Assembly (NCBI GenBank): GCA_951406725.2
Contig: OX597824.1
Coordinates: forward strand, 12,338,001-12,402,000
Reading direction: 5' to 3'
Origin: Octopus vulgaris
Lineage: Eukaryota
Length of the DNA stretch: 64,000 bases
A program made the position numbers and the translations under genes. How positions within the stretch are numbered: position 1 is the stretch's first letter; each line of letters begins with the position of its first letter. Shown piece after piece: positions 870-64,000 of this stretch. The notes under the pieces are model-generated. The model was given only the letters and a program-made list of their open reading frames with translations, was not told the DNA's origin and made no database searches.

Positions 870-1345
870 TCACTGCGATAATGCTCTTCTCAGTACATGA
901 GCCGTTCCAGTTAACACGATTTTTTGTACTTCCTGTAGGGATGGTAAGCCCGGTATAATTTTCAAATAGGTTTCAGTACCTTTTTTTATCATTCCTAGAG
1001 ATCTTACAATCACTGTGCCAGCATGCTACATTCATTTACTGTATCAGTAACGCTTTCTTCTTTTGATTTGTATAACCTACATTGGGAACCTACTTGGTTT
1101 CTGTCCATCTTGGCTTTTATCCCATTAGTCTTTAATGCTTGATCTTGTGCAGCTCCTAACAAACTTTCTGCCTCCCTTTTCGGCTTTCCTTTCTGCAACC
1201 ATAGGTATGTCTCACTACTACTATTTGCCGAAACTATTTTTGAGAATCCACCTTGCAACACCTTCTCCTGCCAGTCAGATAATTTCTGTTCTTTTTAAAG
1301 TTCGTTTGGGTTTTTGGTTTCCCTATGTCTTGCAGTGATTCTAGC
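870..1345 (-). mobile_element. Decayed 3' fragment of an R4/Dong-like RLE non-LTR retrotransposon (zinc-knuckle region and C-terminus)
   Basis: Minus-strand peptide TYLWLQKGKPKREAESLLGAAQDQALKT...QCRLYKSKEESVTDTVNECSMLAQ, then ...LGMIKKGTETYLKIIPGLPSLQEVQKIVLTGTAHVLRRALSQ*. Typical of R4-clade ORF ends; next to (TTA)n. Confidence 0.8.
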
Positions 1346-1353
1346 AGCTTTTA

Positions 1354-1480
<127 letters not shown>

Positions 1481-1499
1481 GTTTGTCTTTTGCTTTCAG

Positions 1500-1768
1500 G
1501 AACATACATCACGTCCATATACGCACGACATAGTGATCTCATATCAAGATAAACAATACACGATCTTGCAGGTGGGGCCCCAGTTAGTATTTTCTTCAGG
1601 TCAAGTAGCCCATCAAAAAGGTCTCTGAATAAGGGTTGTTTAAGGATGTTGAACGAAGCACGTATGTTTCCAGAAGTAAATTATTCAAACTCCAAAGAAT
1701 TCCTCTCAACACATGACTATGATGCTCCCTCGCTACATCTGTTCGTAACCAGAGATGCATATATTGTT
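1500..1768. mobile_element. Non-coding interspersed repeat associated with (TTA)n; same family as 52322-52490
   Basis: Shares 'cgaca(ta/tg)gtgatctcatatcaagataaacaa' with 52448-52480. Both copies follow (TTA)n arrays. Confidence 0.6.
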
Positions 1769-1920
1769 CTTTGCCTCTTTAAACATTTTGGGACTGTCTT
1801 TATGTATGTAGCCTGGTAACTGTAACTGAGAGATAAAACGCTGAATGCATTTTAGTGCTAGCTTTATTCTTCCATTTTAAATAATGTACATAATTCCTCA
1901 TCTCAAAAACATAAAATAGC

Positions 1921-2320
<400 letters not shown>

Positions 2321-2457
2321 ATGTTGCTTATCAATCACTACTCCGAGTTTGATAGACACGCTCGCACGCACCAGCCTAATTTTGTAGACGTTCGTTTGCC
2401 TAAATAGATCAGGCACGTGCTCAGACGTCTGAAAGCTATTAACTGCTAAAGTGCAAC

Positions 2458-2491
<34 letters not shown>

Positions 2492-2493
2492 TA

Positions 2494-2556
<63 letters not shown>

Positions 2557-2890
2557 ACACATTTTTTTTTGCTGAATTTTTTGTTGTTGTCACGATGCCA
2601 TAATCAATTGAAGACAGTTTTATCTTAAATGCTACTCGAGAAAAGTTGATGGACGAAAATAAAATAAGAATAAAGAAAAATTCCCATTAGCATTAGAGCA
2701 AGTTAAATCATTCTCTCTGTGACTCTCTCACGTTTTCCTTTCTCTCTCTCTCTCTCTCTCTATGTATGTACATGAAAATCGGCAGAAAGCTAGATGTGTT
2801 CGACCAAAGATGCGTGAGAAGAATTCTGAGAACGTACTGCCAAGACCATGTAACCAATGAAGACAGTTTAAGGGGATCTAATACAAGACC

Positions 2891-3109
2891 TGACATAATG
2901 GCTGATCGTTAGCAAGGAAAGACACACAAATAAGAAAGAAGAAAGCAAAGGACCACTGATGAGGTCACAGAAGTGTGACGAAAGAACTCTGGCCGAAATA
3001 CGATTAATGCAAAAAATAAAATAAAGCTGAAGCAAATTAACACCAAATATATAGTGCGTGTGTTTTTATTGGCTAAACTGGCAACATGACCATCCCCAAA
3101 TACAACAAC
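2891..3109 (+). mobile_element. 219-bp hammerhead-containing mini-element with an 11-bp target-site duplication
   Basis: AATACAAGACC at 2880-2890 and 3110-3120 flanks the insert. Confidence 0.8.
2951..2994 (+). ncRNA. Type I hammerhead ribozyme motif (minimal stem III)
   Basis: gaCCA-CTGATGA-G-GTCACA gaag TGTGAC-GAAA-G aa C-TC-TGGcc: intact core, 6-bp stem II, CUC cleavage triplet. Confidence 0.75.
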
Positions 3110-3429
3110 AATACAAGACCATTTAGCGAAATCATCACAGAAGGAAGCTTAAAGCTAGCAGGTCATATAGTTCGGCTAGCAGGTCATATAGTTCGGCTAG
3201 CAGGTCATATAGTTCGGCTATCAGAACAACACCATTCTAAGGCAATTTTCAAATGGATACCAGTGGAGGGAAAAATAAGAGAGAAAGACCGGAAACTACA
3301 TGACACAGGACATTTATAAACGACACGGGAGACGATAATAACACGTGGTTCGATGTAGAGAAAACCGCTGCTAATAGAAAATTTTCCGGGTTCATAGGAT
3401 TATGCTCAAGGTGGCTTCGTCATTCATAC

Positions 3430-3990
3430 GTGCCATCCATGCTACATTCACCCATCTTTTTTTAAAACATTCGCTAGACAAAACTTGCCTCTCTACTCTC
3501 ACTTTCCTTTTCGAGCGATACTTGAAGAAGTTGACGAGAGATTGACCAGAGAGGAAAGTGTTTGTCTCCAATCCTTTCAGACGCCGTCGACCAGATACAT
3601 TCTTTCGCCATAGCCACAAGGATGATGAAAATAGCTCTTCCTTCTCGTTTGATTAAATATAATGAGCTGAATGTTCCCACTGCTCCATTGTACGTTGTCA
3701 GGTCACTTGAAAAATTTGTGTTGAGTACAACTGTGTAATGTTCTCAGATGTGAGAGCGTAAAGTGTCGTATCACCTGCATATGTGGTAATAAAGGATCTT
3801 ATTACTTTGTGAGGTAAATCATTAATAAATAAACTGTAAGTGCATAGGTCCCAGTACAGATCCTGACTGTACTTTTGAAATAATGCCTACATTTATTCCA
3901 GAAGACTTAATATTGATTTTCTTTATACACTTCCTTAGATATTGACCATGGAGCAGATTTTCCTGTTAACATCTTACCACGACAATTTTT
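3430..3990 (-). mobile_element. Highly decayed CR1/L2-like LINE reverse-transcriptase fragment
   Basis: Minus strand gives QSGSVLGP (PQGSVLGP-like) and YAGDTT (YADD-like), with frameshifts and stops. Confidence 0.55.
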
Positions 3991-8004: not shown

Positions 8005-9085
8005 CAGGGTGCGTAAGGTATTTGAGGCCATACCTTTTTGGGGTCATTGTTGCATTTTTTGCTAACTCTGTCTAATCTTTGGTTCAGAAAATAATAATGG
8101 CAAACCCTCAGCTTACTCAAGAAACGAAGAGGCATGCTGTTATTGTGGTTATAAAGGCTGAGCATAGCGATTTAGAAAAATCTCGAATTTTAAAAGTTGC
8201 TAGATTTTTCGTCTATAAAGTTTGTAAGGAGTTGAAAATGGAAATGTATCAACAGTATTAAAGCATAAAAAGAATTCTAAACGCTAGGAAATCATCAGAA
8301 CACTTGAATTTATCCAGCAAGTTCAACAGACCGTTGATTACAATCTCAGAAAGTCCATGAGGTCAATTGAAAATGATCTCCATGTGTCAGAAGGAACAGT
8401 CAGAAATGTCCACGAAGAAATCAGATATAAATCTTATATGATGAGGAAAGGTCAATTTGTTAGAAAAAGTAAAAGCAAATCACTACATCAGATCTAAAAG
8501 GTTCTTAAACAAACTGAAAAATCCAGTAGAAGAAGATTTGATTTGGTTTTTCTCAAACGAGAAAAACTTGGACTAAGGTCAAAAAGTTAACAGAAGAAAC
8601 GACAGATGGTTATGAGCAGACCTTTCTGAAGTTCCAGGTGTTATGCATACAAAATTTCCTGCAACTGTCATGGTTTTAGGGGTTGTCAGCAATGAAGAAC
8701 ATGTGATGCCTCCTTACTTCTTTCCACAAGGCCTTAGAGTTAACTCTGCCGCCTACATTGAGGTCCTGGAAACAATTGCTAAGCCCTGGATAGAGAGTGT
8801 ATGCAATGGAAGGCCATATGTGTTTCAGTAAGACTCTTCACTATCACACATGGCTCTAGTAACGCAGGAATGGATGGTTGAAAAGTTCCATGATCACATA
8901 ACCCCTAACATTTGGCCTCCTAATTCCCCAAATCTCAATCCATTGGACTATTTCATGTGGGGCATTGTTGAGAGACAGAGGTTAATGAACACGCCCATAA
9001 CACAAAAAATTCTTTGGAAGCCGCCATAGTCAGAGTAATGTCCAGAATGAGCCAGGACCACTTGATTCAAGCATTCAAATGATTT
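8005..9085 (+). mobile_element. Decayed Tc1/mariner-superfamily (maT/DD37D-like) transposon; pseudogenised transposase
   Basis: TA|CAGGGTG terminus. MANPQLTQETKRHAVIV.., FFSNEK, HTKFPATVMVLGVVSNE, RPYVFQ*DS..SH, WPPNSPNLNPLDYFMWG. Confidence 0.88.
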
Positions 9086-12679: not shown

Positions 12680-12683
<4 letters not shown>

Positions 12684-12885
12684 ATCCAAACATGAAAACA
12701 CAAAGAGAAAACACAACAACGCGAGGACGTGGAACAAATATAGTATTATTGGACGCTCAGGAAAGAAGGAAAGAAGGAGGATTTAACTTTTCGAACGGAG
12801 CTCTTCGTCAGAAACATAGGAAAAGGAAAGATCCAAAGAAGGGAAAACGGAGCAAAAAAATCGCCAACGGTACACACGCGGTCAC

Positions 12886-12887
<2 letters not shown>
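12680..12887 (-). mobile_element. ~208-bp hammerhead-containing mini-element embedded in (TA)n
   Basis: Unique island with pure (TA)n on both sides; contains a hammerhead core. Confidence 0.7.
12781..12815 (-). ncRNA. Minimal type I hammerhead motif
   Basis: Minus strand: GTTT-CTGACGA-A-GAGC tcc GTTC-GAAA-AG-TT-AAAT. Stem III is reduced and one mismatch from the palindrome AACGTT. Confidence 0.6.
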
Positions 12888-12955
<68 letters not shown>

Positions 12956-13104
12956 CCACTTATTCGGTAGCCATGATGAAACTCGGAGTTTCATCATGGC
13001 TACAGAATAATTGTCACATATTACATTTACAGAGAAATTCCTCTATTTGCATAATATCGAAGTCTCTTTCATTCTTTTGTTGTCTTGCCATTTTTATCAA
13101 TATA

Positions 13105-31037: not shown

Positions 31038-32665
31038 TGGAGAGAGATCTGTATCGGTTTTTATTTCACGTTCCTCCTCAAATTCATTAACTGCTTCTAA
31101 TGATGTTGTTTTCGGGCTCGTAAACTTGGGCATGATAAGTCACAGGTTTCTTTTCTCTGCTATTGATGTGCTTCGATGTTACAGTACTTTCACAATAGAT
31201 ACTTTTACTTTTCGAGCCCTCAAACCACTTTTCTAGCTTACCTATTTCTTTATTACCCACAAGGGGCTAAACACAGAGGGGACAAACAAGGACAGACATA
31301 GGTATTAAGTCGATTACATCGACCCCAGTGCGTAACTGGTACTTAATTAATCGACACCGAAAGGATGAAAGGAAAAGTCGACCTCGGCGGAATTTGAGCT
31401 CAGAACGTAACGGCAGAGGAAATACGGCTACGCAATTCGTCCGACGTGCTAACGTTTCTGCCAGCTCGCCGCCTTCTTTTCTAGCTTACCTATTAACTGT
31501 TTCTGGTGTTACGTGAATTTATCGACAATATTGCACATTATACCAATAATAATCCGCGAGACAGTTTTCCGAAGAAACAGTTTCATTTTTCCAGTTGTGA
31601 GCCCAGTCCGGCTTCAGGAGTTTATCCTTGTCTTTATTATGTAGCTCCAACTCCTTGTGGCTGGCCAGTAATATTATTGCTGACACATACTGAAAGAGAT
31701 TTATAATCTCATATGTGGTTTCTGATACAACAGACATTAGATAAGCAATAGTTGTTAGCACCTCAACATTAGATAATTTCCTGCAATTTCACTTACTACT
31801 TCCAGTTCCAATTTAGAAGGCTCTTTTTTGTGTATATGTTTTAAATTGTCTGTCTTTTAGATTAATGCATTAAACCTGCTGCAGTACATCTTCCCACACC
31901 ACTTTTAGAGAATTAAAACAATTTCTATATTCCTCTGTTTATTCGAGGAAGCTATCAATTGACCGCTTTTGTTGTCTAGCAGTTTAACTATTTATTTCTT
32001 TGTATCTATACTTTGCAGTTTCCACTGATGGTATTATTGTTAAGGCGGCGAGCTGGCAGAGACGTTAGCACGCCGGGCGAAATGAGTAGCAGTATTTCGT
32101 CTGCCGTTACGTTCTGAGTTCAAATTCCGCCGAGGTCGACTTTGCCTTTCATCCTTTGGGTCGATAAATTAAGTACCAGTTACGCACTGGGGTCGATGTA
32201 ATCGACTTAATCCGTTTGTCTGTCCTTGTTTGTCCCCTCTGTGTTTAGTCCCTTGTGGGTAATAAAAAAGTTTTTAAGGCGGCGAGCTGGCAGAAACGTT
32301 AGCACGCCGGGCGAAATGCGTAGCCGTATTTCGTCTGCCGTTACGTTCTGACTTCAAATTCCGCCGAGGTCGACTTTGCCTTTCATCCTTTCGGGGTCGT
32401 TTAAATAAGTACCAGTTACGCACTAGGGTCGATGTAATCGACTTAATCCGTTTGTCTATCCTTGTTTCTCCACTCTATGTTTAGCCCCTTGTGGGTGGTA
32501 AAGAAATAGGTATTTTCGTCTATCTTTACGTTCTGAATTCAAATTCCGCCGAGGTCGACTTTGCCTTTCATCTTTTCAGGGACGATAAATTAAGTACTAG
32601 TTGCGTACTGGGGTTGATCTGATCGACTGGCCCCTCCCCCATTGTGCCTAGAATAGAAAAGAATA
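29385..32665. mobile_element. Dense cluster of Nin/Deu-like SINEs: 29385-29611(-), 30115-30350(+), 30375-30792(+, dimer), 31240-31475(-), 32043-32268(+), 32277-32665(+, dimer)
   Basis: Repeated 'ggcggcgagctggcaga..ttcaaattccgccgaggtcgactttgcctttcatcc'. Confidence 0.88.
31500..32030 (-). mobile_element. Very decayed R4-like LINE C-terminal remnant
   Basis: Minus-strand remnants such as TTIAYLMS and a KPD-like segment resemble the zinc-knuckle/RLE region seen at 18296-19020. Confidence 0.35.
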
Positions 32666-39193: not shown

Positions 39194-39235
39194 ATAAACC
39201 TGATGATTGCGTAGCTCATGAAAGTACTAGTTTAT
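39194..39235 (+). ncRNA. Minimal type I hammerhead motif inside a ~190-bp island between microsatellites
   Basis: ATAAAC-CTGATGA-t-TGcG tag CtCA-t-GAAA-GTAC-TA-GTTTAT. Perfect 6-bp stem I, palindromic stem III AGTACT. Confidence 0.78.
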
Positions 39236-39343
39236 TTCAATATTGTAAAATTGTAAAAAATGTAAATGATAAAACGTGAAAATCAGACTAGGTTGGAATT
39301 TCATTGATTAATATAATTTTTATACACAACCATAAAACTCAGA

Positions 39344-41922: not shown

Positions 41923-42720
41923 ACCACTACTGAGGTATTTGTGTCCCCGTAATTTAGGCAAAAGAGACAGTTAGAATAATTACCTGTTTATAAAAAAAAA
42001 CAAAACAAAAAAAAGCAAACAAAAAAACAAAACAAACATAAGTACTGGGCTCTATTTGTTCGAATAGACCCTTCAAGATGATGTCCCAACATTGCCGCAA
42101 TCCATTAACTGAAACAAATAAAATATTTGCGATTTACTACATTCAGTACGGTAGACTACGCACTAAATATAAAATATATTACTGTTTAACATAGTCAAGT
42201 ATCACAACTATATCAGATGTTTACGATGAGAATTATCCCAAGCATACGAATAATTATAAATTTATGGTCTTCTGTATTAGATTAGTATTTATAAACTTTT
42301 TCTAATGTATGTATTTAAATCAGTTAATTATTGTTATTCATATTCTTGGACTGAAATCTTCTCATAATCGGTGAATTTAAGAGCCATATTTGTTGAATAG
42401 AATATCTGGTGTGACGATGAAATAATTTATAATCGTAATGTGATACGGGGCGAAGTAGACTTGTTAATGCGTTCTCGTAAGAATATACAAATAGCATGAT
42501 TTTTAGGGATAAGACGGAAGCCGGTGTGTGCTATAATCTATAATACGGATACCCGGGAGACGAGGTCAGATTGTCGTCAAGGAGATGATTTTCTATCCTA
42601 GATATGTATTTGCGCGCGCGCATGTGTGTGTGCGCGTGCACATGTCTATATATACACAGGGTCGAATTCGAATGTTATTTTAATCCAAGATAAGTACTCT
42701 GATATATATATAAGAATATA

Positions 42721-43060
42721 TACACAGGGGTTGGACAAAATAATGGAAATACCTTAAAATTTCAAACAAATTTATTTTAATATGGGATAGGACCACCTTT
42801 GGCAGTAATTACAGCTTGAATTCTATGAGGTATGGTCTCGTACAAAGTTTGAATTGTTTCCAAAAAACAATTTTTGTCCATTCTTAAGCTAAAACATTCT
42901 CCAGTTTTTGTAGTGATGATGGTGGAGGATATCGACCCCTAACTTGTTTTTTCTAAAATACACCATAAATGTTAAAAAAATATTGAGATCTGGGGACTGT
43001 GGTGGCCAGATAAGATGTTCAACTTCACTAGAATGTTCCTCGTGTCATTCAGTAACAAAA
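42721..43060 (-). mobile_element. Tc1 transposon 3' fragment (duplicate at ~55929-56270)
   Basis: WPPQSPDLN..HLWCILEK..ETIQTLYETIPHRIQAVITAKGGPIPY*; terminus 'tacacaggggttggacaaaa'. Confidence 0.85.
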
Positions 43061-44121
43061 CGGTGTTTCGGATCAGACGGCTTACATAAGTTGGAATTTC
43101 TCCGTTTTGATGGGGATTTTTTCCAATAATGTTTTTCACCAAAGTTTTCAGAATGATAGGAGACATCTTTTCACGAAAAAAAAAAAAGAAAAAAAGACTA
43201 ATATTGAAAATTTGTTTTTTTTTTTCAGTCCGAAACGATTTTGGCCACTTTTTTTTTACTACGCACTTAAACCCGCGAAAGAAACACTTTTGGTTAATAA
43301 AAAAGATAGTTAATAATTTCAGAGGAAGTGCTTAAATGGTACTTATTTAATCGACCCCGAAAGAATGGAAGGCAAAGTCGACCTCGGCAGAATTTGAACT
43401 CAGAACGTAGCGGCAGACGAAATGCCGCTAAGCATTTCGCCCGGCGTGCTAACGATTCTGCCAGCTCGCCGCCTTAATTCTGCCTTTGTTTGAAATGTTG
43501 GCACAAGGTCTAACCGTTTTAAGAGGAGGTGTCAGTAAGCTACTTCAACCTCAATGATTGACTAGTAATTTATCTTATCGACCCGGAAAGGATGAAAGAT
43601 AAAGTTGATCTCAGTGGAATTTGAACACAGAACGTAAAGAATCAGAAAAAAAACCCAAAAAACAAACTGCTGAGCATTTTGTCCAGTTCTGCCAGTTCGT
43701 AGCATTAGCCGCGTGCTGATATATGGCACAGATACAGAGATGCTTACAAAAGCCCTGCAAATTCTTTAAGGACATTATGTAAACGATTACCACTTGCAAA
43801 ACTCAGCACGCCGTAGAGTAAAAATAAAACACATGCCGAACTTTGTGGCAATCTACCTTCAGTTATAACCACATTGCGCCAATGAAAATAAACGTTTTTT
43901 ATAAGTTACTATTGGAGATGCAATGACGAGGTAACACATTAACTGTTGCTATAGAAACTAACTCGTGGCAAGAGATCGAGAGGGACTGACTTTTCGTACA
44001 TTGCCCAACTGTTACAACATACTACGATTAAACTGGAGACTCTGCTTGCTGCCACTAAGTAGCGTGTCTACAGAAGATCACTTGGTAGAAACTGTCTGAG
44101 CTTTTGAGTTTTTCTGATGGG

Positions 44122-44195
<74 letters not shown>

Positions 44196-44229
44196 ACACA
44201 CATACACACACACACACACACACATACAC

Positions 44230-44260
<31 letters not shown>

Positions 44261-44647
44261 TCATATAGCTATGATATAGACATATATATGCGTGTATAAA
44301 TGAGTGTGTGTGCGTGTGCGTTAACATATTTACATACATATATATGCATACACACACACACACACACACACACAAATACACACGCACACATATATATATA
44401 CATATATACAACGGGCTTCGTTCAGTTTCCATCTACCAAATCCACTCACGAGGCTTTGGTCGGCCCGAGGCTATTGTAGAAAGCACTTGCTTAAGGTGCC
44501 ACGCAGTGGGACTGAACCCGGAACCATGTGGCTGGTAAGCAAGCTACTTACCACACAGCTACTCATACGCCTACATACATGTATGTATATATGTATATAT
44601 ATATATTACACAATCGCACATACGTATAAACATGCATGTGCGCGCGC

Positions 44648-44692
<45 letters not shown>

Positions 44693-44714
44693 ATATAACA
44701 CTTAGACACGTTAC

Positions 44715-45064
44715 GTGGGAGCACCCGTTCACACACCAACACGTCTATCAGTGGTTACAGCATTTGCATTAACAGAATGCCTTCCAATGCATGTGTTCTA
44801 CAAAAACAGACCTCTCTGGAAAACCACCATCCATGAGGGAACGGCGACTTTCGATTCGAAAAGGTCTGCAGAGCTGGAGGAGAAAAGACGACGACGGAAG
44901 GAGCGCCAACAACAACCACGTGCGACTCTCCCTTCCGGCACTAGATGTCCGCACTGCGACCGATCTTTTCAAGCAAGAATTGGTCTTATCGGTCACCTAC
45001 GGACTCAGCAGTAAATTTGCGCGAAGACCATCATCCTCGACCTTGAGGGATTGCCATCATCATC
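44715..45064 (+). mobile_element. RTE LINE 3' end with a single C2H2 finger and (CAT)n tail (duplicate at ~57915-58269)
   Basis: RPLWKTTIHEG..EKRRRRKERQ..CPHCDRSFQARIGLIGHLRTQQ*, then 'atcctcgaccttgagggattgccatcatcatc'. Confidence 0.85.
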
Positions 45065-45502
45065 TGCAAAACGTAGACTGTCTTTCATACAGGCAAGCAA
45101 GTTAGCTATTGTTGTAATCGTCTTCTGATCTCTAAATGACTCATGAAATATAAATTTTCGTTTTACTTTTGTTAAGCTGCGACCCATCATCCTTGACCTA
45201 AATTCACCGACAAAGAAGTTTTATATATTTAATATTTTCATACCTGAATAAACTCAGGTTTCTGTTCACAACGTTTACGCTTTTGTTACCCACCCATGTT
45301 GTTATTCGCTTGGCAGAATCTTTAGAGTCGCACAAACTCCTTGAGGTGTTTATCATGCTTCTTTGCGCTCTGAATTCAAATCTCATCAGGCTTATCTTTG
45401 TCTTTCATCTTTTCTTACTGGCCAGGTAATTGCAATAAATCTAATCAACTCTCCTTCCCCTCCCCAATTCCTCGCTTTGTACCCTCTGTTACATGTTTCA
45501 GT

Positions 45503-45890
45503 GTGGAGGCGCAATGGCCCAGTGGTTAGGGCAGCGGACTCGCGGTCGTAGGATCGCGGTTTCGATTCCCAGACCGGGCGTTGTGAGTGTTTATTGAGCG
45601 AAAACACCTAAAAAGTTCCACGAGGCTCCGGCAGGGGATGGTGGTGATCCCTGCTGTACTCTTTCACCACAACTTTCTCTCACTCTTACTTCCTGTTTCT
45701 GTTGTACCTGTATTTCAAAGGGCCGGCCTTGTCACTCTCTGTGTCACGCTGAATATCCCCGAGAACTACGTTAAGGGTACACGTGTCTGTGGAGTGCTCA
45801 GCCACTTACACGTTAATTCCACGAGCAGGCTGTTCCGTTGATTCGGATCAACCGGAACCCTCGTCGTCGCAACCGACGGAGTGCTTCCAC
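45503..45890 (+). mobile_element. 'gtggaggc' SINE, tail type 1, 13-bp TSD (duplicate at ~58708-59093)
   Basis: TACATGTTTCAGT at 45490-45502 and 45891-45903. Confidence 0.92.
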
Positions 45891-46106
45891 TACATGTTTC
45901 AGTCATTCGACAGCGGCAGTGCTGGGGCACCACCTTGAAGGGTTTGGTCGGGTAGGTCGATCCCTTCGTACTTATTCTACTGGCTTCTGTTGCCGAACCT
46001 ATATATTACAAAGGTGTAAACAAACACACACTGGTTGTAAAACTGTGGCAGAAGGTGGAGGAAACAAGAATGAATACGAAGACACACATACGTGCGCGTG
46101 AACACA

Positions 46107-46149
<43 letters not shown>

Positions 46150-46151
<2 letters not shown>

Positions 46152-46541
46152 TCTTTTACTCTTTTACTCTTTACTCTTTTACTTGTTTCAGTCATTTGAC
46201 TGCGGCCATGCTGGAGCACCGCCTTTAGTCGAGCATATCGACCCCGGGACTTATTCTTTGTAAGCCCAGTACTTATTCTATCGGTCTCTTTTTTGCCGAA
46301 CCGCTAGGTGACGGGGACGTAAACACACCAGCATAAAGGGGGACAAACACACACATACACATATATACATATATATACATATATACGACAGGGTTCTTTC
46401 AGTTTCCGTCTACCAAATCCACTCACAAGGCATTGGTCGGCCACGGGGCTATAGCAGAAGACACTTGCCCAAGATGCCACGCAGTGGGACTGAACCCGGA
46501 ACCATGTGGCTAGTTAGCAAGCTACTTACCACACAGCCACA

Positions 46542-46543
<2 letters not shown>
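46150..46543 (-). mobile_element. CORE-like SINE in (TA)n, present only in duplication copy 1
   Basis: Absent from the equivalent position (59313-59480) of copy 2. Confidence 0.88.
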
Positions 46544-46613
<70 letters not shown>

Positions 46614-46812
46614 TACACACACACATGTATACAACAAATTTCAACACAGTTTCCATCTGCCAAATTCACTCACAAAGCAAATGTATTCTGCCACAGCCTA
46701 AGGTCAACCTGGGGCTATAGTAGCCCGATCTGTGTGTCTGTATGTGTGTATACATACATTTGTATACACAGACACATATATATGTATATATACATATACA
46801 TACATACATACA

Positions 46813-46846
<34 letters not shown>

Positions 46847-46850
46847 CATA

Positions 46851-46884
<34 letters not shown>

Positions 46885-46910
46885 CATACATACATACATA
46901 CATACATACA

Positions 46911-47463
46911 TGGTGGCTGCCCCCTCGTTATCGAGTATGGCCAATGCACGAAGCTTAATCAATGTTGTTATCGTGCAATGCCTGTGCAAGAAGATACTTT
47001 TTAAGTGAGGAAAGGCTGTGCACTGAGTCAATCCCACTCACTAAGCAAAAGCAGCCATAAACCGAAAAGAAGAACAAGTCAACATCATCGGTAACCACTG
47101 AGCCGCAGGTTTTATGTCGGAGTTATCCCAGTTACCTGAGTTACCTTCTCCTAGAAGGATGCCCTGACAAAGGCTAGGAGTCCTTCACTCCCAATGGTTT
47201 AACTGCGCGATCGGGTATTCAATCCGATTATTTCTATGTCCCCACGCATGATACAGCTTTAAGACATTTATTGGATGGTCGTTGACTCTCAAGAGTTCCT
47301 CCGCCCTTTGACGGGTTTTGTTTTTCATCCCACAGGGTGACCAATAAACACCCTCCTCACCAAGCGAACTTGGTGGGGTTGCCGGTTTAGTCGCCGACGA
47401 CCCGACCATGCAACAGGTAGTACTGGGTTACATGTTACCAGTAGCACTCGAAAGTGACCTGAC
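46911..47463 (-). mobile_element. Non-autonomous RTE-related element (copy of 21539-22091; duplicate at 59729-60279)
   Basis: Reverse complement aligns end to end; flanked by (CATA)n. Confidence 0.85.
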
Positions 47464-47491
47464 ATACATACATACATACATACATACAAAT

Positions 47492-47569
<78 letters not shown>

Positions 47570-47832
47570 TATAGGCGTAGGAGTGGCTACGTGGTAAGTA
47601 GCTTGCTTACCAACCGCATGGTTCCAGGTTTAGTCCCACTTCGTGACACCTTGGGCAAGTGTCTTCTACTATAATCTCGGGCCGACAAAATCCTTGTGAG
47701 TGGATTTGGTAGACGGAAACTGAAAGAAGCACTAGGCTTCCAAAGAATAAGTTTGCTCGACTAAAGGCGGTGCGCTAGCATGGTCACAGTCAAATGACTG
47801 AGACAGGTAAAAGAGTAAAAGTAGTATATATA

Positions 47833-48117
<285 letters not shown>

Positions 48118-48124
48118 GTATATA

Positions 48125-49403
48125 TGAGACTTTTATAGGAGAGGCAGTTATAAGTGTCCTAGATTATTGTAATTTTAGTATATCATTACAAAGCATACAA
48201 TAAGCTGTTCGTCCAGTTTTTGCTATTTTCGACTGAAGAGACAGCTGCAACAGCACTTTGAACACGCCCAGCTAAATACTGCGTACCACAGCCGATCAGT
48301 TTGCCGAATGCAATCGAGACGTTTGTGAACTCGCTACGCAATCAAGTGTGGTGTTTTGAAATGGGTAAAAACGCTACAGAAACTAACGAAATTCTCCAGG
48401 CTGCTTACGGATTAACCTCGTCGATAGCACAAGAGGTTCAAAGACGGTGGGAAGCACTCCGTCGGTTACGACGACGAGGGTTCCGGTTGATCCGATCAAC
48501 GGAACAGCCTGCTCGTGAAATTAACGTGTAAGTGGCTGAGCACTCCACAGACACGTGTACCCTTAACGTAGTTCTCGGGGATATTCAGCGTGACACAGAG
48601 AGTGACAAGGCCGGCCCTTTGAAATATAGGTACAACAGAAACAGGAAGTAAGGGTGAGAGAAAGTTGTGGTGAAAGAGTACAGCAGGGATCACCACCATC
48701 CCCTGCCGGAGCCTCGTGGAGCTTTAGGTGATTTCGCTCAATAAACACTCACAACGCCCGGTCTGAGAATCGAAACCGCGATCCTACGACCGCGAGTCCG
48801 CTGCCCTAACCACTGGGCTATTCCGCCTCCACTAAAAGACGGTAAAGAGCGGGTGATGGACAATGAGATGTGTGGGAGGCGAAGGAGGGAGGCCAGAACA
48901 TCAGAGCTGGTTGAGAAAATTCTCAATTTCCTTGATGAGAACCGTCGTGTGTCTATAAAGGCAATAATCATACAGTGTGGAGTTGGTGAGGCAACTGTAC
49001 ACAAAATTATTCACGAAGATCTGAACTTTTGCAGAATTTGTGCGAAGGTTGTTTCCATGGTGCTCAGTGACAATCATCCTGGTAACCAACAGGGGTGGGC
49101 ATCAAAAATATCTCTCACTCTCCCTACTGTCCAGATCTTGACCCCCGTGACTATTGGTTGTTCCCCAAGGTGAAGAAGAAACTAGAGGCAGTCGTTTTGA
49201 CGGCGAATGAGGCTGTGATAAAGGGTCCTGGACACCTTCACCTTGAAGGACTTTTATGGGGGCCTTCATGAAGTGGCTGAAGCACTACAACAAATACATT
49301 GATGTCAGAGACCCCCTACTTTGACGGAGATTAGAATTTTGTACTTCTTTCAAATTAATAAATGTCTCTTGTGAAAAATATTTGAAAATTTCTGGAATTC
49401 CCC
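48125..49403 (+). mobile_element. Internally deleted mariner relic interrupted by a SINE (48449-48832, minus, TSD AAAGACGGT); duplicate at ~60990-62272
   Basis: MGKNATETNEILQAAYG..HKRFKDG | ..ENRRVSIKAII..GVGEATVHKIIHEDLNFCRICAK..HSPYCPDLDPRDYWLFPKVKKKL. Confidence 0.85.
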
Positions 49404-49434
49404 ATGTATGTATGTATGTATGCATGCGCGTGCT

Positions 49435-49481
<47 letters not shown>

Positions 49482-51058
49482 TTTGTGTGTGTGTGTTTGT
49501 GTGTGAGGCAGTGCGAGATAGAAGGTAAAAAAATAATGCATTACAAAATAAATCGGATTGAGGGGAAAAAGAAAGAACAAAAGCCCCCTCTATAACCACA
49601 ATCTTATACCCCCCCCACACACAACATATATATGATACATTATCGTACATCCGGTACTTATATATCAGAAATGATAATAAGGTATGATGACCCACAGACA
49701 AAGAAAAAAATGCAAATATATAATGTAAAGTTCAACAGCATTGAACGTAAGCCATTGGTATACTCGTGTAGGCTTAAGCTTAGGCTTACATGAATGCATG
49801 TGTCTCTGTCGGTTTCAATTTACTAGTTATTGACTTATAACTCGTGTTAGTATGAAAGTGGCTGAATTGGATACACAAACACGCATATACTTAATGTAAT
49901 CCTTCGGGAGTATCAATGTAACCCGCTACGTAACAAAACTAGCCCTTAGAATCAGAATCACAGATATAGTTCATTCGATGGATTTTCCATGTAATTTTCA
50001 TCCAATTTCATTCTAGGGTTTGGATCCATCTCAGATCATGCTAAATGACACATCTCCAATTTAGGAGCAAATTCCTTAACTCGACGTCAGTGCCTCCGCT
50101 CAACTAAACTATAATGAATGAAAGCTGCTTATTGATTTGATTGAAACCTTTACAAAAAGAAAGCAACTTTTAAAGGCTTGGCTGTCTGGAAAAGATTTTA
50201 GATATTTTTATCAAAATGGGGTTTTGTGGTTTCTTTCATCATTGAATACTTCAAGTAGTGCTTCAATTACAAATTTTATTCAATGCGACATTTCAATTTA
50301 CTGTGTAATAGTTTAACACTTGTTCATACTTCTGAAGATATAAAAGTTGTCTAAATATTTGCAACCGCTATCTTACATATTCAGAGTTAAAATGACCGAG
50401 TCATTTAGAGACAAAATAAGCGTAATAATAGTTTCAAATTTTGGTACAAGGTGAGTAAATTTTAATGGGAGGAGGTAATTTAATTAAATCGACTACCACA
50501 CCCAAATGACACTTATTTTATCATCACTGAAAAGATGAAAGGCAAAGTCAACCGCGGTGGTATTTGAATTCAGAAAATAAAAAGCTGGAAGAAAAGGTGA
50601 AAATAAGTATAATAATCGCTGACATAATGCAGTGGCTTTGGCTTGCTGCGAACTACCGATCTTTCTATCCACTTGGCTATTCACTCTTTCCCACGGGTAA
50701 CTAGGGGTTAAAAATATATTTTAAAAAGTTATACTTAAAATATTGTTTGAAATTCTTTTTGAAAAAGAAATAAAATGAGATAAACGCTAAAGTAGACTTT
50801 CATTAGACAACAATATAAGAAAACCAGATTTTACACATGCCAATTCAGTAATAAAGAAGATTTTGAAGTGACAAAAATATTTATTCTTTTCAGATTGAAG
50901 AAAAGAACTGTTCATTCGTAAAATACGATAAGTCTGAGTGAGTCGTGAGATGTTAGTTCAAAGGTTTCATGCAAGACAGGTCTAAATGTCAGAACACACC
51001 CCACCTCACAATAAATAAACTTATTCTATAAAAATTACAACCTGTTCTCTCCCTCGTC

Positions 51059-51093
<35 letters not shown>

Positions 51094-51187
51094 GCTTTAC
51101 CTTTGCAGGCCGTCATAACTTTACCAGAACATTTGGTTCTATGATTCTTTCGACATCTTGTCATTGTGGTTAAATTCTAAGTAATTC

Positions 51188-51244: not shown

Positions 51245-51852
51245 ATTCTATACAGTGCAAAGGTGCACCACAACTTGTCAAAAGAGCTTATAAAGCATCT
51301 GCAGTAATATATAAATGTCTGGAAAGTGAACAGTGTATGAGTTAGAAACATGCTTGCGTGTGTATGGAGGAGAGAAAATCAGGTGTAGTGTTGGCGAATC
51401 TCAGGAAGCATAGAAGTTTTGAAGGATGCAGTGCTTTGACAACTAACAACTGATGCCAGCAGTTTGTTCCATGCTTCAGCAACTCTTAGCGTGAAAAATG
51501 TTTCCGAAAGTCATGAGAGTTGTGCTGTTTTTCTGACTTTGTAAACATGTCCACGGGTGTTAGACAGGTAGAGTTTGAAAAGGTGCTCAGAGTTATTGTT
51601 TGTACGATGGTTAATAATTTTATGGCTGTCTGCCAAGTCAGCTGCCAGACGTCGGAGTTTCAATGTGTCCATGCCCAGGGAAGTAAGGCGTTCAGAATAT
51701 GGCAAATGCCTGATGGAGGGTATTCTCTTGGTTGCACGTCGCTGAACGGTTTCCAGAACGATTAATATCTTGGGCAAGATAGGGGTTCCAGACTGGTGAT
51801 GCAAATTCCAGGTGAGGCCGCACCATAGCTATATAAAGCCTCAGGTAGATAG
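51245..51852 (-). mobile_element. CR1-like LINE 3' fragment with (TTA)n tail
   Basis: LYIAMVRPHLEFASPVWNP..VQRRATKRIPSIRHLPYSERLTSLGMDTLKLRR..SNTRGHVYK. Confidence 0.88.
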
Positions 51853-52071
51853 CCAATTTGTTTTCTTTCACTTGTTTCAGTCATTGGCTGCAGCCATGCA
51901 GAGGTACCGTCATTAAGAGATTTCAGACGAATAAACCAACCCCAGTACTTATTTATACAAAAATCTTGTACTTATTCTATCGGTCTCTTTTGAACTGCTA
52001 GGTTACGAGTATGTAAACAGACTAGCACTGATTGTTAAGCTGTTGTGGGACAAACACAAACAGAAACAGAA

Positions 52072-55665: not shown

Positions 55666-55765
55666 NNNNNNNNNNNNNNNNNNNNNNNNNNNNNNNNNNN
55701 NNNNNNNNNNNNNNNNNNNNNNNNNNNNNNNNNNNNNNNNNNNNNNNNNNNNNNNNNNNNNNNNN
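55666..55765. other. Assembly gap (100 N)
   Basis: Read directly from the sequence. Confidence 0.99.
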
Positions 55766-57315
55766 GAGACGAGGTCAGATTGTCGTCAAGGAGATGATTT
55801 TCTATCCTAGATATGTATTTGCGCGCGCGCATGTGTGTGTGCGCGTGCACATGTCTATATATACACAGGGTCGAATTCGAATGTTATTTTAATCCAAGAT
55901 AAGTACTCTGATATATATATAAGAATATATACACAGGGGTTGGACAAAATAATGGAAATACCTTAAAATTTCAAACAAATTTATTTTAATATGGGATAGG
56001 ACCACCTTTGGCAGTAATTACAGCTTGAATTCTATGAGGTATGGTCTCGTACAAAGTTTGAATTGTTTCCAAAAAACAATTTTTGTCCATTCTTAAGCTA
56101 AAACATTCTCCAGTTTTTGTAGTGATGATGGTGGAGGATATCGACCCCTAACTTGTTTTTTCTAAAATACACCATAAATGTTAAAAAAATATTGAGATCT
56201 GGGGACTGTGGTGGCCAGATAAGATGTTCAACTTCACTAGAATGTTCCTCGTGTCATTCAGTAACAAAACGGTGTTTCGGATCAGACGGCTTACATAAGT
56301 TGGAATTTCTCCGTTTTGATGGGGATTTTTTCCAATAATGTTTTTCACCAAAGTTTTCAGAATGATAGGAGACATCTTTTCACGAAAAAAAAAAAGAAAA
56401 AAAGACTAATATTGAAAATTTGTTTTTTTTTTTCAGTCCGAAACGATTTTGGCCACTTTTTTTTTACTACGCACTTAAACCCGCGAAAGAAACACTTTTG
56501 GTTAATAAAAAAGATAGTTAATAATTTCAGAGGAAGTGCTTAAATGGTACTTATTTAATCGACCCCGAAAGAATGGAAGGCAAAGTCGACCTCGGCAGAA
56601 TTTGAACTCAGAACGTAGCGGCAGACGAAATGCCGCTAAGCATTTCGCCCGGCGTGCTAACGATTCTGCCAGCTCGCCGCCTTAATTCTGCCTTTGTTTG
56701 AAATGTTGGCACAAGGTCTAGAGGTGTCAGTAAGCTACTTCAACCTCAATGATTGACTAGTAATTTATCTTATCGACCCGGAAAGGATGAAAGATAAAGT
56801 TGATCTCAGTGGAATTTGAACACAGAACGTAAAGAATCAGAAAAAAAAACAAAAAAACAAACTGCTGAGCATTTTGTCCAGTTCTGCCAGTTCGTAGCAT
56901 TAGCCGCGTGCTGATATATGGCACAGATACAGAGATGCTTACAAAAGCCCTGCAAATTCTTTAGGACATTATGTAAACGATTACCACTTGCAAAACTCAG
57001 CACGCCGTAGAGTAAAAATAAAACACATGCCGAACTTTGTGGCAATCTACCTTCAGTTATAACCACATTGCGCCAATGAAAATAAACGTTTTTTATAAGT
57101 TACTATTGGAGATGCAATGACGAGGTAACACATTAACTGTTGCTATAGAAACTAACTCGTGGCAAGAGATCGAGAGGGACTGACTTTTCGTACATTGCCC
57201 AACTGTTACAACATACTACGATTAAACTGGAGACTCTGCTTGCTGCCACTAAGTAGCGTGTCTACAGAAGATCACTTGGTAGAAACTGTCTGAGCTTTTG
57301 AGTTTTTCTGATGGG

Positions 57316-57417
<102 letters not shown>

Positions 57418-57843
57418 ATACACACACACACAAACACACACACAAACACACACACATCATATAGCTATGATATAGACATATATATGCGTGTATAAATGAG
57501 TGTGTGTGCGTGTGCGTTAACATATTTACATACATATATATGCATACACACACACACACACACACACACAAATACACACGCACACATATATATATACATA
57601 TATACAACGGGCTTCGTTCAGTTTCCATCTACCAAATCCACTCACGAGGCTTTGGTCGGCCCGAGGCTATTGTAGAAAGCACTTGCTTAAGGTGCCACGC
57701 AGTGGGACTGAACCCGGAACCATGTGGCTGGTAAGCAAGCTACTTACCACACAGCTACTCATACGCCTACATACATGTATGTATATATGTATATATATAT
57801 ATTACACAATCGCACATACGTATAAACATGCATGTGCGCGCGC

Positions 57844-57896
<53 letters not shown>

Positions 57897-59328
57897 ATAT
57901 AACACTTAGACACGTTACGTGGGAGCACCCGTTCACACACCAACACGTCTATCAGTGGTTACAGCATTTGCATTAACAGAATGCCTTCCAATGCATGTGT
58001 TCTACAAAAACAGACCACTCTGGAAAAACCACCATCCATGAGGGAACGGCGACTTTCGATTCGAAAAGGTCTGCAGAGCTGGAGGAGAAAAGACGACGAC
58101 GGAAGGAGCGCCAACAACAACCACGTGCGACTCTCCCTTCCGGCACTAGATGTCCGCACTGCGACCGATCTTTTCAAGCAAGAATTGGTCTTATCGGTCA
58201 CCTACGGACTCAGCAGTAAATTTGCGCGAAGACCATCATCCTCGACCTTGAGGGATTGCCATCATCATCTACAAAACGTAGACTGTCTTTCATACAGGCA
58301 AGCAAGTTAGCTATTGTTGTAATCGTCTTCTGATCTCTAAATGACTCATGAAATATAAATTTTCGTTTTACTTTTGTTAAGCTGCGACCCATCATCCTTG
58401 ACCTAAATTCACCGACAAAGAAGTTTTATATATTTAATATTTTCATACCTGAATAAACTCAGGTTTCTGTTCACAACGTTTACGCTTTTGTTACCCACCC
58501 ATGTTGTTATTCGCTTGGCAGAATCTTTAGAGTCGCACAAACTCCTTGAGGTGTTTATCATGCTTCTTTGCGCTCTGAATTCAAATCTCATCAAGCTTAT
58601 CTTTGTCTTTCATCTTTTCTTACTGGCCAGGTAATTGCAATAAATCTAATCAACTCTCCTTCCCCTCCCCAATTCCTCGCTTTGTACCCTCTGTTACATG
58701 TTTCAGTGTGGAGGCGTAATGGCCCAGTGGTTAGGGCAGCGGACTCGCGGTCGTAGGATCGCGGTTTCGATTCCCAGACCGGGCGTTGTGAGTGTTTATT
58801 GAGCGAAAACATCTAAAGCTCCACGAGGCTCCGGCAGGGGATGGTGGTGATCCTTGCTGTACTCTTTCACCACAACTTTCTCTCACTCTTACTTCCTGTT
58901 TCTGTTGTACCTGTATTTCAAAGGGCCGGCCTTGTCACTCTCTGTGTCACGCTGAGTATCCCCGAGAACTACGTTAAGGGTACACGTGTCTGTGGAGTGC
59001 TCAGCCACTTACACGTTAATTTCACGAGCAGGCTGTTCCGTTGATTCGGATCAACCGGAACCCTCATCGTCGTAACCGACGGAGTGCTTCCACCACATGT
59101 TTCAGTCATTCGACAGCGGCAGTGCTGGGGCACCACCTTGAAGGGTTTGGTTGGGTAGGTCGATCCCTTCGTACTTATTCTACTGGCTTCTGTTGCCGAA
59201 CCTATATATTACAAAGGTGTAAACAAACACACACTGGTTGTAAAACTGTGGCAGAAGGTGGAGGAAACAAGAATGAATATGAAGACACACATACGTGCGC
59301 GTGAACACACGCATATATATATATATAT

Positions 59329-59463
59329 GTAGGTCCCGGGTTGAGTCGGGGTTAACCAAAGTAAATAAGGTACTCAATACATAGCAGAGTAAATTAATTT
59401 ATTTTACAGAAGGAGCTTCTACAGGACTAGAACTGTTTCATTCAAAAGAAATCATCAGGAAGC
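59329..59463 (-). mobile_element. 135-bp hammerhead-containing mini-element in (TA)n, present only in duplication copy 2
   Basis: Unique island between TA tracts, not present at 46110-46610. Confidence 0.8.
59415..59463 (-). ncRNA. Type I hammerhead ribozyme motif, core intact
   Basis: Minus strand: GCTTC-CTGATGA-t-TTC tttt GAA-t-GAAA-CAG ttctagtc CTG-TA-GAAGC; GUA cleavage triplet. Confidence 0.85.
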
Positions 59464-60330
59464 ATATATATATATATATATAGACATACACACACACACA
59501 TGTATACAACAAATTTCAACACAGTTTCCATCTGCCAAATTCACTCACAAAGCAAATGTATTCTGCCACAGCCTAAGGTCAACCTGGGGCTATAGTAGCC
59601 CGATCTGTGTGTCTGTATGTGTGTATACATACATTTGTATACACAGACACATATATATGTATATATACATATACATACATACATACATACATACATACAT
59701 ACATACATACATACATACATACATACATGGTGGCTGCCCCCTCGTTATCGAGTATGGCCAATGCACGAAGCTTAATCAATGTTGTTATCGTGCAATGCCT
59801 GTGCAAGAAGATACTTTTTAAGTGAGGAAAGGCTGTGCACTGAGTCAATCCCACTCACTAAGCAAAAGCAGCCATAATCCGAAAAGAAGAACAAGTCAAC
59901 ATCATCGGTAACCACTGAGCCGCAGTTTTATGTCGGAGTTATCCCAGTTACCTGAGTTACCTTCTCCTAGAAGGATGCCCTGACAAAGGCTAGGAGTCCT
60001 TCACTCCCAATGGTTTAACTGCGCGATCGGGTATTCAATCCGATTATTTCTATGTCCCCACGCATGATACAGCTTTAAGACATTTATTGGATGGTCGTTG
60101 ACTCTCAAGAGTTCCTCCGCCCTTTGACGGGTTTTGTTTTTCATCCCACAGGGTGACCAATAAACACCCTCCTCACCAAGCGAACTTGGTGGGGTTGCCG
60201 GTTTAGTCGCCGACGACCCGACCATGCAACAGGTAGTACTGGGTTACATGTTACCAGTAGCACTCGAAAGTGACCTGACATACATACATACATACATACA
60301 TACATACATACAACACACACACACACACAC

Positions 60331-60378
<48 letters not shown>

Positions 60379-60640
60379 TATAGGCGTAGGAGTGGCTACG
60401 TGGTAAGTAGCTTGCTTACCAACCGCATGGTTCCAGGTTTAGTCCCACTTCGTGACACCTTGGGCAAGTGTCTTCTACTATAATCTCGGGCCGACAAAAT
60501 CCTTGTGAGTGGATTTGGTAGACGGAAACTGAAAGAAGCACTAGGCTTCCAAAGAATAAGTTTGCTCGACTAAAGGCGGTGCGCTAGCATGGTCACAGTC
60601 AAATGACTGAAACAGGTAAAAGAGTAAAAGAGTATATATA

Positions 60641-60985
<345 letters not shown>

Positions 60986-62311
60986 GAGACTTTGAGACTT
61001 TTATAGGAGAGGCAGTTATAAGTGTCCTAGATTATTGTAATTTTAGTATATCATTACAAAGCATACAATAAGCTGTTCGTCCAGTTTTTGCTATTTTCGA
61101 CTGAAGAGACAGCTGCAACAACACTTTGAACACGCCCAGCTAAATACTGCGTACCACAGCCGATCAGTTTGCCGAATGCAATCGAGACGTTTGTGAACTC
61201 GCTACGCAATCAAGTGTGGTGTTTTGAAATGGGTAAAAACGCTACAGAAACTAACGAAATTCTCCAGGCTGCTTACGGATTAACCTCGTCGATAGCACAA
61301 GAGGTTCAAAGACGGTGGGAAGCACTCCGTCGGTTACGACGACGAGGGTTCCGGTTGATCCGATCAACGGAACAGCCTGCTCGTGAAATTAACGTGTAAG
61401 TGGCTGAGCACTCCACAGACACGTGTACCCTTAACGTAGTTCTCGGGGATATTCAGCGTGACACAGAGAATGACAAGGCCGGCCCTTTGAAATATAGGTA
61501 CAACAGAAACAGGAAGTAAGGGTGAGAGAAAGTTGTGGTGAAAGAGTACAGCAGGGATCACCACCATCCCCTGCCGGAGCCTCGTGGAGCTTTAGGTGAT
61601 TTCGCTCAATAAACACTCACAACGCCCGGTCTGAGAATCGAAACCGCGATCCTACGACCGCGAGTCCGCTGCCCTAACCACTGGGCTATTCCGCCTCCAC
61701 TAAAAGACGGTAAAGAGCGGGTGATGGACAATGAGATGTGTGGGAGGCGAAGGAGGGAGGCCAGAACATCAGAGCTGGTTGAGAAAATTCTCAATTTCCT
61801 TGATGAGAACCGTCGTGTGTCTATAAAGGCAATAATCATACAGTGTGGAGTTGGTGAGGCAACTGTACACAGAATTATTCACGAAGATCTGAACTTTTGC
61901 AGGATTTTTGCGAAGGTTGTTTCCATGGTGCTCAGTGACAATCATCCTGGTAACCAACAGGGGTGGGCATCAAAAATATCTCTCACTCTCCCTACTGTCC
62001 AGATCTTGACCCCCGTGACTATTGGTTGTTCCCCAAGGTGAAGAAGAAACTAGAGGCAGTCGTTTTGACGGCGAATGAGGCTGTGATAAAGGGTCCTGGA
62101 CACCTTCACCTTGAAGGACTTTTATGGGGGCCTTCATGAAGTGGCTGAAGCACTACAACAAATACATTGATGTCAGAGACCCCCTACTTTGACGGAGATT
62201 AGAATTTTGTACTTCTTTCAAATTAATAAATGTCTCTTGTGAAAAATATCTGAAAATTTCTGGAATTCCCCATGTATGTATGTATGTATGCATGCGCGTG
62301 CTTGTGTGTGT

Positions 62312-62351
<40 letters not shown>

Positions 62352-64000
62352 ATTTGTGTGTGTGTGTTTGTGTGTGAGGCAGTGCGAGATAGAAGGTAAA
62401 AAAATAATGCATTACAAAATAAATCGGATTGAGGGGAAAAAGAAAGAACAAAAGCCCCCTCTATAACCACAATCTTATACCCCCCCCACACACACAACAT
62501 ATATATGATACATTATCGTACATCCGGTACTTATATATCAGAAATGATAATAAGGTATGATGACCCACAGACAAAGAAAAAAATGCAAATATATAATGTA
62601 AAGTTCAACAGCATTGAACGTAAGCCATTGGTATACTCGTGTAGGCTTAAGCTTAGGCTTACATGAATGCATGTGTCTCTGTCGGTTTCAATTTACTAGT
62701 TATTGACTTATAACTCGTGTTAGTATGAAAGTGGCTGAATTGGATACACAAACACGCATATACTTAATGTAATCCTTAGGGAGTATCAATGTAACCCGCT
62801 ACGTAACAAAACTAGCCCTTAGAATCAGAATCACAGATATAGTTCATTCGATGGATTTTCCATGTAATTTTCATCCAATTTCATTCTAGGGTTTGGATCC
62901 ATCTCAGATCATGCTAAATGACACATCTCCAATTTAGGAGCAAATTCCTTAACTCGACGTCAGTGCCTCCGCTCAACTAAACTATAATGAATGAAAGCTG
63001 CTTATTGATTTGATTGAAACCTTTACAAAAAGAAAGCAACTTTTAAAGGCTTGGCTGTCTGGAAAAGATTTTAGATATTTTTATCAAAATGGGGTTTTGT
63101 GGTTTCTTTTATCATTGAATACTTCAAGTAGTGCTTCAATTACAAATTTTATTCAATGCGACATTTCAATTTACTGTGTGATAGTTTAACACTTGTTCAT
63201 ACTTCTGAAGATATAAAAGTTGTCTAAATATTTGCAACCGCTATCTTACATATTCAGAGTTAAAATGACCGAGTCATTTAGAGACAAAATAAGCGTAATA
63301 ATAGTTTCAAATTTTGGTACAAGGTGAGTAAATTTTAATGGGAGGAGGTAATTTAATTAAATCGACTACCACACCCAAATGACACTTATTTTATCATCAC
63401 TGAAAAGATGAAAGGCAAAGTCAACCGCGGTGGTATTTGAATTCAGAAAATAAAAAGCTGGAAGAAAAGGTGAAAATAAGTATAATAATCGCTGACATAA
63501 TGCAGTGGCTTTGGCTTGCTGCGAACTACCGATCTTTCTATCCACTTGGCTATTCACTCTTTCCCACGGGTAACTAGGGGTTAAAAATATATTTAAAAAA
63601 GTTATACTTAAAATATTGTTCGAAATTCTTTTTGAAAAAGAAATAAAATGAGATTAACGTTAAAGTAGACTTTCATTAGACAACAATATAAGAAAACCAG
63701 ATTTTACACATGCCAATTCAGTAATAAAGAAGATTTTGAAGTGACAAAAATATTTATTCTTTTCAGATTGAAGAAAAGAACTGTTCATTCGTAAAATACG
63801 ATTAGTCTGAGTAAGTCGTGAGGAGATGTTAGTTCAAAGGTTTCATGCAAGACAGGTCTAAATGTCAGAACACACCTCACCTCACAATAAATAAACTTAT
63901 TCTATAAAAATTACAACCTGTTCTCTCCCTCGTCCCGTGTGTGTGTGTGTGTGTGCTTTACCTTTGCAGGCCGTCATAACTTTACCAGAACATTTGGTTC

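Follow-up and report, generated by a model that had tools for sequence, protein, structure and literature searches.

The island and its hammerhead motif

The DNA analysed here (the window) is a 64,000-nucleotide stretch of the Octopus vulgaris contig OX597824.1 in which one segment is present twice. At one site the second copy of this segment carries a 135-bp island between two short (TA)n tracts, and at the same site in the first copy the (TA)n tracts enclose a tRNA-type SINE. The features referred to below are as follows (window coordinates, with the strand where there is one):

42557–51139, plus strand: copy 1 of the duplicated segment, given over the stretch that copy 2 covers in the window
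46110–46150: (TA)n tract to the left of the SINE in copy 1
46151–46543, minus strand: tRNA-type SINE with a (GAGTAAAA)n-like tail, at the island's site in copy 1 and with many relatives in the window
46544–46609: (TA)n tract to the right of the SINE in copy 1
55666–55765: assembly gap of 100 N; copy 2 starts at the very next base
55766–64000, plus strand: copy 2 of the segment, differing from copy 1 by 0.58% when the insert is left out
59095–59139, minus strand: older SINE remnant, 3' part, 84% identical to the young SINE
59313–59328: (TA)n tract at the island's 3' junction
59329–59463, minus strand: the island, a 135-bp hammerhead-bearing repeat copy, probably the 3' end of a Penelope-like element (PLE)
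59329–59360, minus strand: the island's 3'-terminal segment, possibly an optional tail of PLE type (parts of PMC8557442) or an edge effect
59415–59463, minus strand: type I hammerhead (helix I of 5 bp, CUGAUGA, helix II, GAAA, helix III, GUA)
59421–59436, minus strand: helix III (ACAG/CUGU, 4 bp, plus an 8-nt loop), predicted to pair between two molecules
59464–59482: (TA)n tract at the island's 5' junction
59486–59554, minus strand: older SINE remnant, 5' part of the same old copy, 75% identical to the young SINE

The flanks common to both loci end in ...GTGAACACACGC on the left and begin with AGACATACACAC on the right. A sequence-only reading had described the island as a 135-bp element lying between (TA)n tracts where the duplicate locus holds an unrelated SINE, and both statements hold: the sole likeness between the two inserts, 14 of 16 letters between an end of the island and the B-box region of the SINE, has an E value of 3.3 and is attributed to chance. 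Within the window the island has no second copy, the best other match in a BLAST-type self comparison being 23 nt long (E 0.27).

On the minus strand, helix I pairs GCUUC (59463–59459) with GAAGC (59419–59415) over 5 bp, and the core blocks between them are CUGAUGA (59458–59452), a 12-nt helix II region (59451–59440) and GAAA (59439–59436). The CUGANGA, GAAA and NUH core, the three helices and the open end at helix I of a type I hammerhead are present, and the GUA triplet predicts cleavage after position 59420, 91 nt from the far end of the island; an AATAAA word (59398–59403, minus strand) lies 17 nt downstream of this predicted site. Helix II has 3 bp (UUC/GAA with a UUUU loop) and is closed by U·U instead of the canonical G10.1-C11.1. 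The complete minus-strand hammerhead that had been proposed therefore stands in its 5-bp stem I, CUGAUGA, GAAA and GUA elements, but not at the base of helix II. The G10.1-C11.1 pair is highly conserved but has known exceptions, among them a natural hammerhead variant with U·U at this position (PMC7229834, in part).

The core and its helices are beyond chance expectation. With a strict descriptor that demands at least 5 Watson-Crick bp in helix I, 3 in helix II and 3 in helix III beyond A15.1-U16.1 (thresholds set post hoc, when the motif had already been seen), the island site is the sole match in the window, and none of 200 shuffled windows contains one. Under a relaxed descriptor the window has three sites, where shuffled windows average 0.125 each and 25 of the 200 had any; a core pattern stripped of helices is not significant, as 9 of 100 shuffles reach the 17 matches observed. 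Rfam returned no match at gathering score across the 64 kb, and so no hammerhead family; at E ≤ 10 it gave 14 weak matches around the island, none of them a hammerhead, which we regard as chance.

How well would such a hammerhead cleave? Helix II with its U·U is worth about −0.1 kcal/mol, and mispairing of its UUC with the GAAA core is possible. When the hammerhead is folded alone, the active monomer has a predicted ensemble probability of 0.05, and in the 135-nt context the predicted pair probabilities of the helices are 0.16–0.29. Helix III, on the other hand, is a centred near-palindrome with 12 of 16 positions self-complementary around a central CUAG, and the predicted active dimer has −21.4 kcal/mol versus −5.7 per active monomer (about −12 for two monomers). 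Since the predicted dimer is more stable than two monomers and helix II is weak, monomer activity of the island's hammerhead is doubtful, and these folding models lead us to expect weak monomer cleavage, contrary to the suggestion that stem III could fold as an active monomer. By itself the palindrome of helix III is suggestive but short of significance, since equally good dimers form in 105 of 840 permutations of the loop. Of the axolotl hammerhead with a U·U base, 22% was reported to be cleaved within an hour in monomeric form, the dimer performing much better (PMC7229834, in part). Over its full 135 nt the RNA shows no strong self-pairing (z −0.30), with 72 of 200 shuffled sequences folding just as well.

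Abundance and age of the repeat family

Contigs of four public runs (X1, X2, X3 and X9) were placed on positions 59140–59620, where they numbered 5,827, 1,631, 3,030 and 127, respectively, counts that include contigs lying on the SINE remnants. X9 is only guessed to be RNA and its 127 contigs are not taken as transcription; none of the runs with island words is listed as an RNA run. Over 59361–59445 the summed contig depth is 238,209–788,747 in X2, compared with 6.7 on the unique flank, and 595,115–1,193,841 in X3, compared with 57.3. Summed contig depth is not copy number, and X1 has no coverage of the unique flank (76% of the run was read), so ratios were taken from X2 and X3; after division by 31 for contig overlap they are about 1,100–3,800 and 340–670, respectively. 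Contigs stack up on the island to a far greater depth than on the unique flank, which makes the island a member of an abundant repeat family. In X1 the summed depth over the 3'-terminal segment (59329–59360) is much below that of the next bin.

Eleven 31-mers sampled from the island are present in part in 23 of 24 listed runs, and half or more of them in three runs, where 7–8 of the 11 occur exactly (a share of 0.73 in X1 and 0.64 in X2 and X3); these three runs come from two studies under three organism labels, and one of them may be the source. Small word shares in the 20 runs without placed contigs are left out of account. Word shares of 0.64–0.73 correspond to about 1–1.4% divergence from variants elsewhere, a rough value that is biased low by recurrent changes. 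The family is varied, with 2–8 differences from the island in 48–81 letters among the longest contig pieces. X2 and X3 contain the unique flank and 7 of the 11 island words, but contigs drop rare variants, so these word counts are uninformative on polymorphism. In fourteen X2 records the element gives way at 59397 to a TA repeat, a junction that the island copy does not have, and this means that other family copies abut TA too, with a different end; the island's own junctions fall in zones that were skipped as repeats during contig placement (59301–59339 and 59455–59508). With so little divergence the island copy is likely recent, and two parts of the idea of a lately mobile ribozyme family are supported, its spread through the genome (contig depth) and the apparently small divergence of this copy (7–8 of 11 31-mers exact).

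A probable Penelope-like 3' end or a possible retrozyme

What kind of element is the island? We put at roughly 55% the probability that a Penelope-like retroelement inserted into (TA)n on what is likely one haplotype and left the island there as its 3' end (pseudo-LTR), cut short on the 5' side. A PLE endonuclease would have nicked the TA tract, and the PLE reverse transcriptase would have started copying at the RNA's 3' end and halted 135 nt later, where helix I has its 5' edge. The hammerhead would do its work in the parent transcript by cleaving tandem precursor RNAs, probably with two molecules joined as a dimer by their near-palindromic helices III; the island, a solo copy, would be carried along and would cleave little or not at all. 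On the other haplotype a SINE likely entered this same tract, which is an internal microsatellite belonging to an older SINE.

PLEs are reported to carry hammerheads close to the 3' end, to be often truncated at the 5' end, to leave dispersed single motifs and to be biased towards (TA)n (consulted parts of PMC4209133, PMC8557442 and bioRxiv 10.64898/2026.07.22.740005); (TA)n is the preferred target of several PLE clades (PMC8557442, in part). The island has a hammerhead near an element end (cleavage site 91 nt from it), (TA)n flanks, and relatives that also lie at TA. It further shares with the hammerheads of EN+ PLE pseudo-LTRs (PMC4209133 and PMC8557442, in part) the type I topology, a 5-bp helix I, perhaps a helix III/loop 3 palindromic enough to suit dimers, and dispersal as a single copy of an abundant family with the motif about 90 nt from one end. 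Table 1 of PMC13282606 (consulted in part) gives 31 Penelope-like families and 336 recently active insertions for O. vulgaris. A further point in favour is that the window has a second hammerhead-bearing insert between TA tracts (12680–12887), with a fold more typical of PLE minimal hammerheads. The 'hotspot' character of the TA tract is unremarkable, as such tracts are a preferred PLE target and other TA tracts in the window flank SINE or hammerhead-bearing inserts.

Several observations do not fit this reading as well. The long helix II, the extra nucleotide after A9 and the G10.1-C11.1 pair that mark metazoan PLE minimal hammerheads (PMC4209133, in part) are missing from the island, whose helix II has 3 bp with U·U and which has nothing extra after A9. 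Random truncation would hit the edge of helix I exactly only by coincidence, and the depth has no peak at the 3' end, unlike what simple 5' truncation would give (edge effects may contribute). Within the window, the island has no link to an RT or GIY-YIG ORF, which counts against the PLE case. The octopus Naiad PLEs (Naiad_Obim and Naiad_Ovul, File S1 of PMC8557442, in part) share the host genus and the (TA)n insertion preference with the island; unlike the island they are described there as lacking canonical hammerheads and as old remnants in cephalopods. Four 12-mers of the island were not found in the consulted part of the Naiad/Chlamys/Hydra consensus supplement of PMC8557442. Prokaryote genomes gave no match to an island 20-mer, and a gapped 20-letter pattern that occurs at ≥119 metagenome and six viral loci was set aside as chance, as BLAST against the island reached at best 35 nt (E 0.005).

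The main rival, which we consider possible though unlikely, is that a non-autonomous, non-LTR retrozyme gave rise to the island as a monomer, whole or permuted, that was processed by its hammerheads from tandem arrays, possibly circular, and inserted solo by borrowed PLE enzymes. In favour of this, the island starts exactly at helix I, and the U·U that closes helix II and the more stable helix III match axolotl HHR_Amex2 (PMC7229834, in part). Metazoan non-LTR retrozymes are, like the island, short non-coding units of low G+C with a type I hammerhead, and in the consulted parts of bioRxiv 10.64898/2026.07.22.740005 solo monomers are common, family lengths run from 51 to 972 bp, and the elements are derived from PLE ends; the abundance of the family (contig depth) also fits. 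Against this, the island is not in tandem at its locus, no head-to-tail joint occurs among the matches listed (both island ends lie in skipped zones), the z of −0.30 for the 135-nt RNA is unlike the highly self-paired retrozyme circles, and 135 nt is shorter than the 170–400 nt given for invertebrates (the last two comparisons being with parts of PMC7229834). The island's fold in fact mixes PLE and retrozyme hammerhead traits, and its helix III (4 bp with an 8-nt loop) is longer than in either PLE minimal hammerheads or HHR_Amex2, as far as the consulted parts of these sources describe them.

An extended version of the retrozyme idea strikes us as improbable: a complete, still-mobile octopus retrozyme of 135 bp that targets TA as a solo unit, with fixed ends, an unusually long helix III that switches between monomer and dimer cleavage, thousands of copies and polymorphism between haplotypes. 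If this were so, cephalopods would have their first described ribozyme element, and with it a tractable system in which to study what hammerheads contribute to PLE-type mobilisation.

Whichever of these origins applies, the island is real but of an expected kind, a further PLE/retrozyme hammerhead repeat, both kinds having been described in other animals; many animal genomes contain thousands of hammerheads in PLE ends and retrozymes, and so another copy is to be expected. Our literature search found no description of an octopus or cephalopod hammerhead family and no paper containing any of four words from the window, and Repbase, Dfam and the supplements of PMC4209133 and PMC7229834 may list this one. 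The role of the hammerhead in PLE transposition is still called an open question in PMC8557442 (in part), and a family both young and abundant would offer a chance to test it.

The two loci, their SINEs and other TA-flanked inserts

Outside the inserts, copies 1 and 2 differ in 46 of 7,984 columns (19 of 3,536 plus 27 of 4,448), or 0.58%. A copy that starts at the first base after a 100-N gap is the usual sign of an unpurged haplotig. This near-identity and the start of copy 2 at the gap make it likely that the two loci are two haplotypes, as had been surmised, the second of them unpurged, and that the assembly contains the 8.2-kb repeat directly after the gap as a false duplication. Two alleles that carry different inserts in a single TA tract would serve as a usable marker of recent activity. 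The alternative, that the loci are a real recent tandem segmental duplication or that the assembler misplaced the island across TA repeats, so that there is no allelic polymorphism, seems to us rather doubtful. Divergence of 0.58% fits a young duplication as well as haplotypes, and both TA junctions fall in the zones skipped as repeats during contig placement; but copy 2 begins on the very first base after the 100-N gap, and the TA tracts of the island are only 16 and 19 bp long, short enough for reads to span.

The remnants of the older SINE bracket the TA tract, so both inserts sit in an internal microsatellite of that SINE. In copy 1 (45891–46679) the young SINE is nested in the same orientation in an older SINE of the same family, whose counterpart in copy 2 is 59095–59554. 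The copy 1 SINE insert is 393 bp long, its head has A- and B-box-like words (by eye), and the TA tracts around it are longer than those around the island; no tRNA gene was called in the 64-kb window. This insert, described from the sequence alone as CORE-like, may be OR2 of O. vulgaris. OR2 is listed as a CORE-SINE (PMC5804259, in part).

The least probable account, which could be combined with either origin, has an ancestral allele that held the SINE and the island in a row with (TA)n between them; recombination or slippage involving the TA tracts would then have removed a different one from each haplotype, with the same outcome as two independent insertions. The same microsatellite borders each insert at both ends, so an exact loss would be scarless and no target-site duplication can be read, but this account needs two separate deletions, and the small divergence of the island from its family fits a young insertion.

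Two more hammerheads and other features near TA tracts were seen in the window. A 208-bp insert between (TA)n tracts (12680–12887, minus strand) contains a second hammerhead with its core at 12811, about 105 nt from the 3' end; its fold is the minimal PLE type, in which A9 is followed by one additional A and a G-C pair closes helix II, though helix III is altered. At its 3' end it is similar to a 10-nt word found 22 nt before the 3' end of the island, and as the sequences are otherwise unrelated it belongs to a second family. A third, decayed hammerhead-like motif (39194–39236, plus strand) has a 6-bp helix I, a damaged helix II with a U·U base and a palindromic helix III; an A+T-rich tract follows it, and it is 71% identical to the island core over 35 nt (E 0.18). 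A near-perfect 43-bp inverted repeat (12963–13005) directly follows a long TA tract. Another SINE-derived insert between TA tracts is present in both copies of the duplicated segment (47570–47835 and 60379–60643), and the length of the adjoining TA tract differs between them.

We noticed neither an intact gene nor an ORF of a PLE in the window. Decayed fragments at 8616–9026, 48745–49268, 51514–51880 and 44706–45011 read by eye like mariner transposase and LINE 3' ends, which is what we presume them to be. A SINE-derived open frame (32278–32481) has one database relative (the only candidate), a predicted Octopus vulgaris protein with 87% identity.
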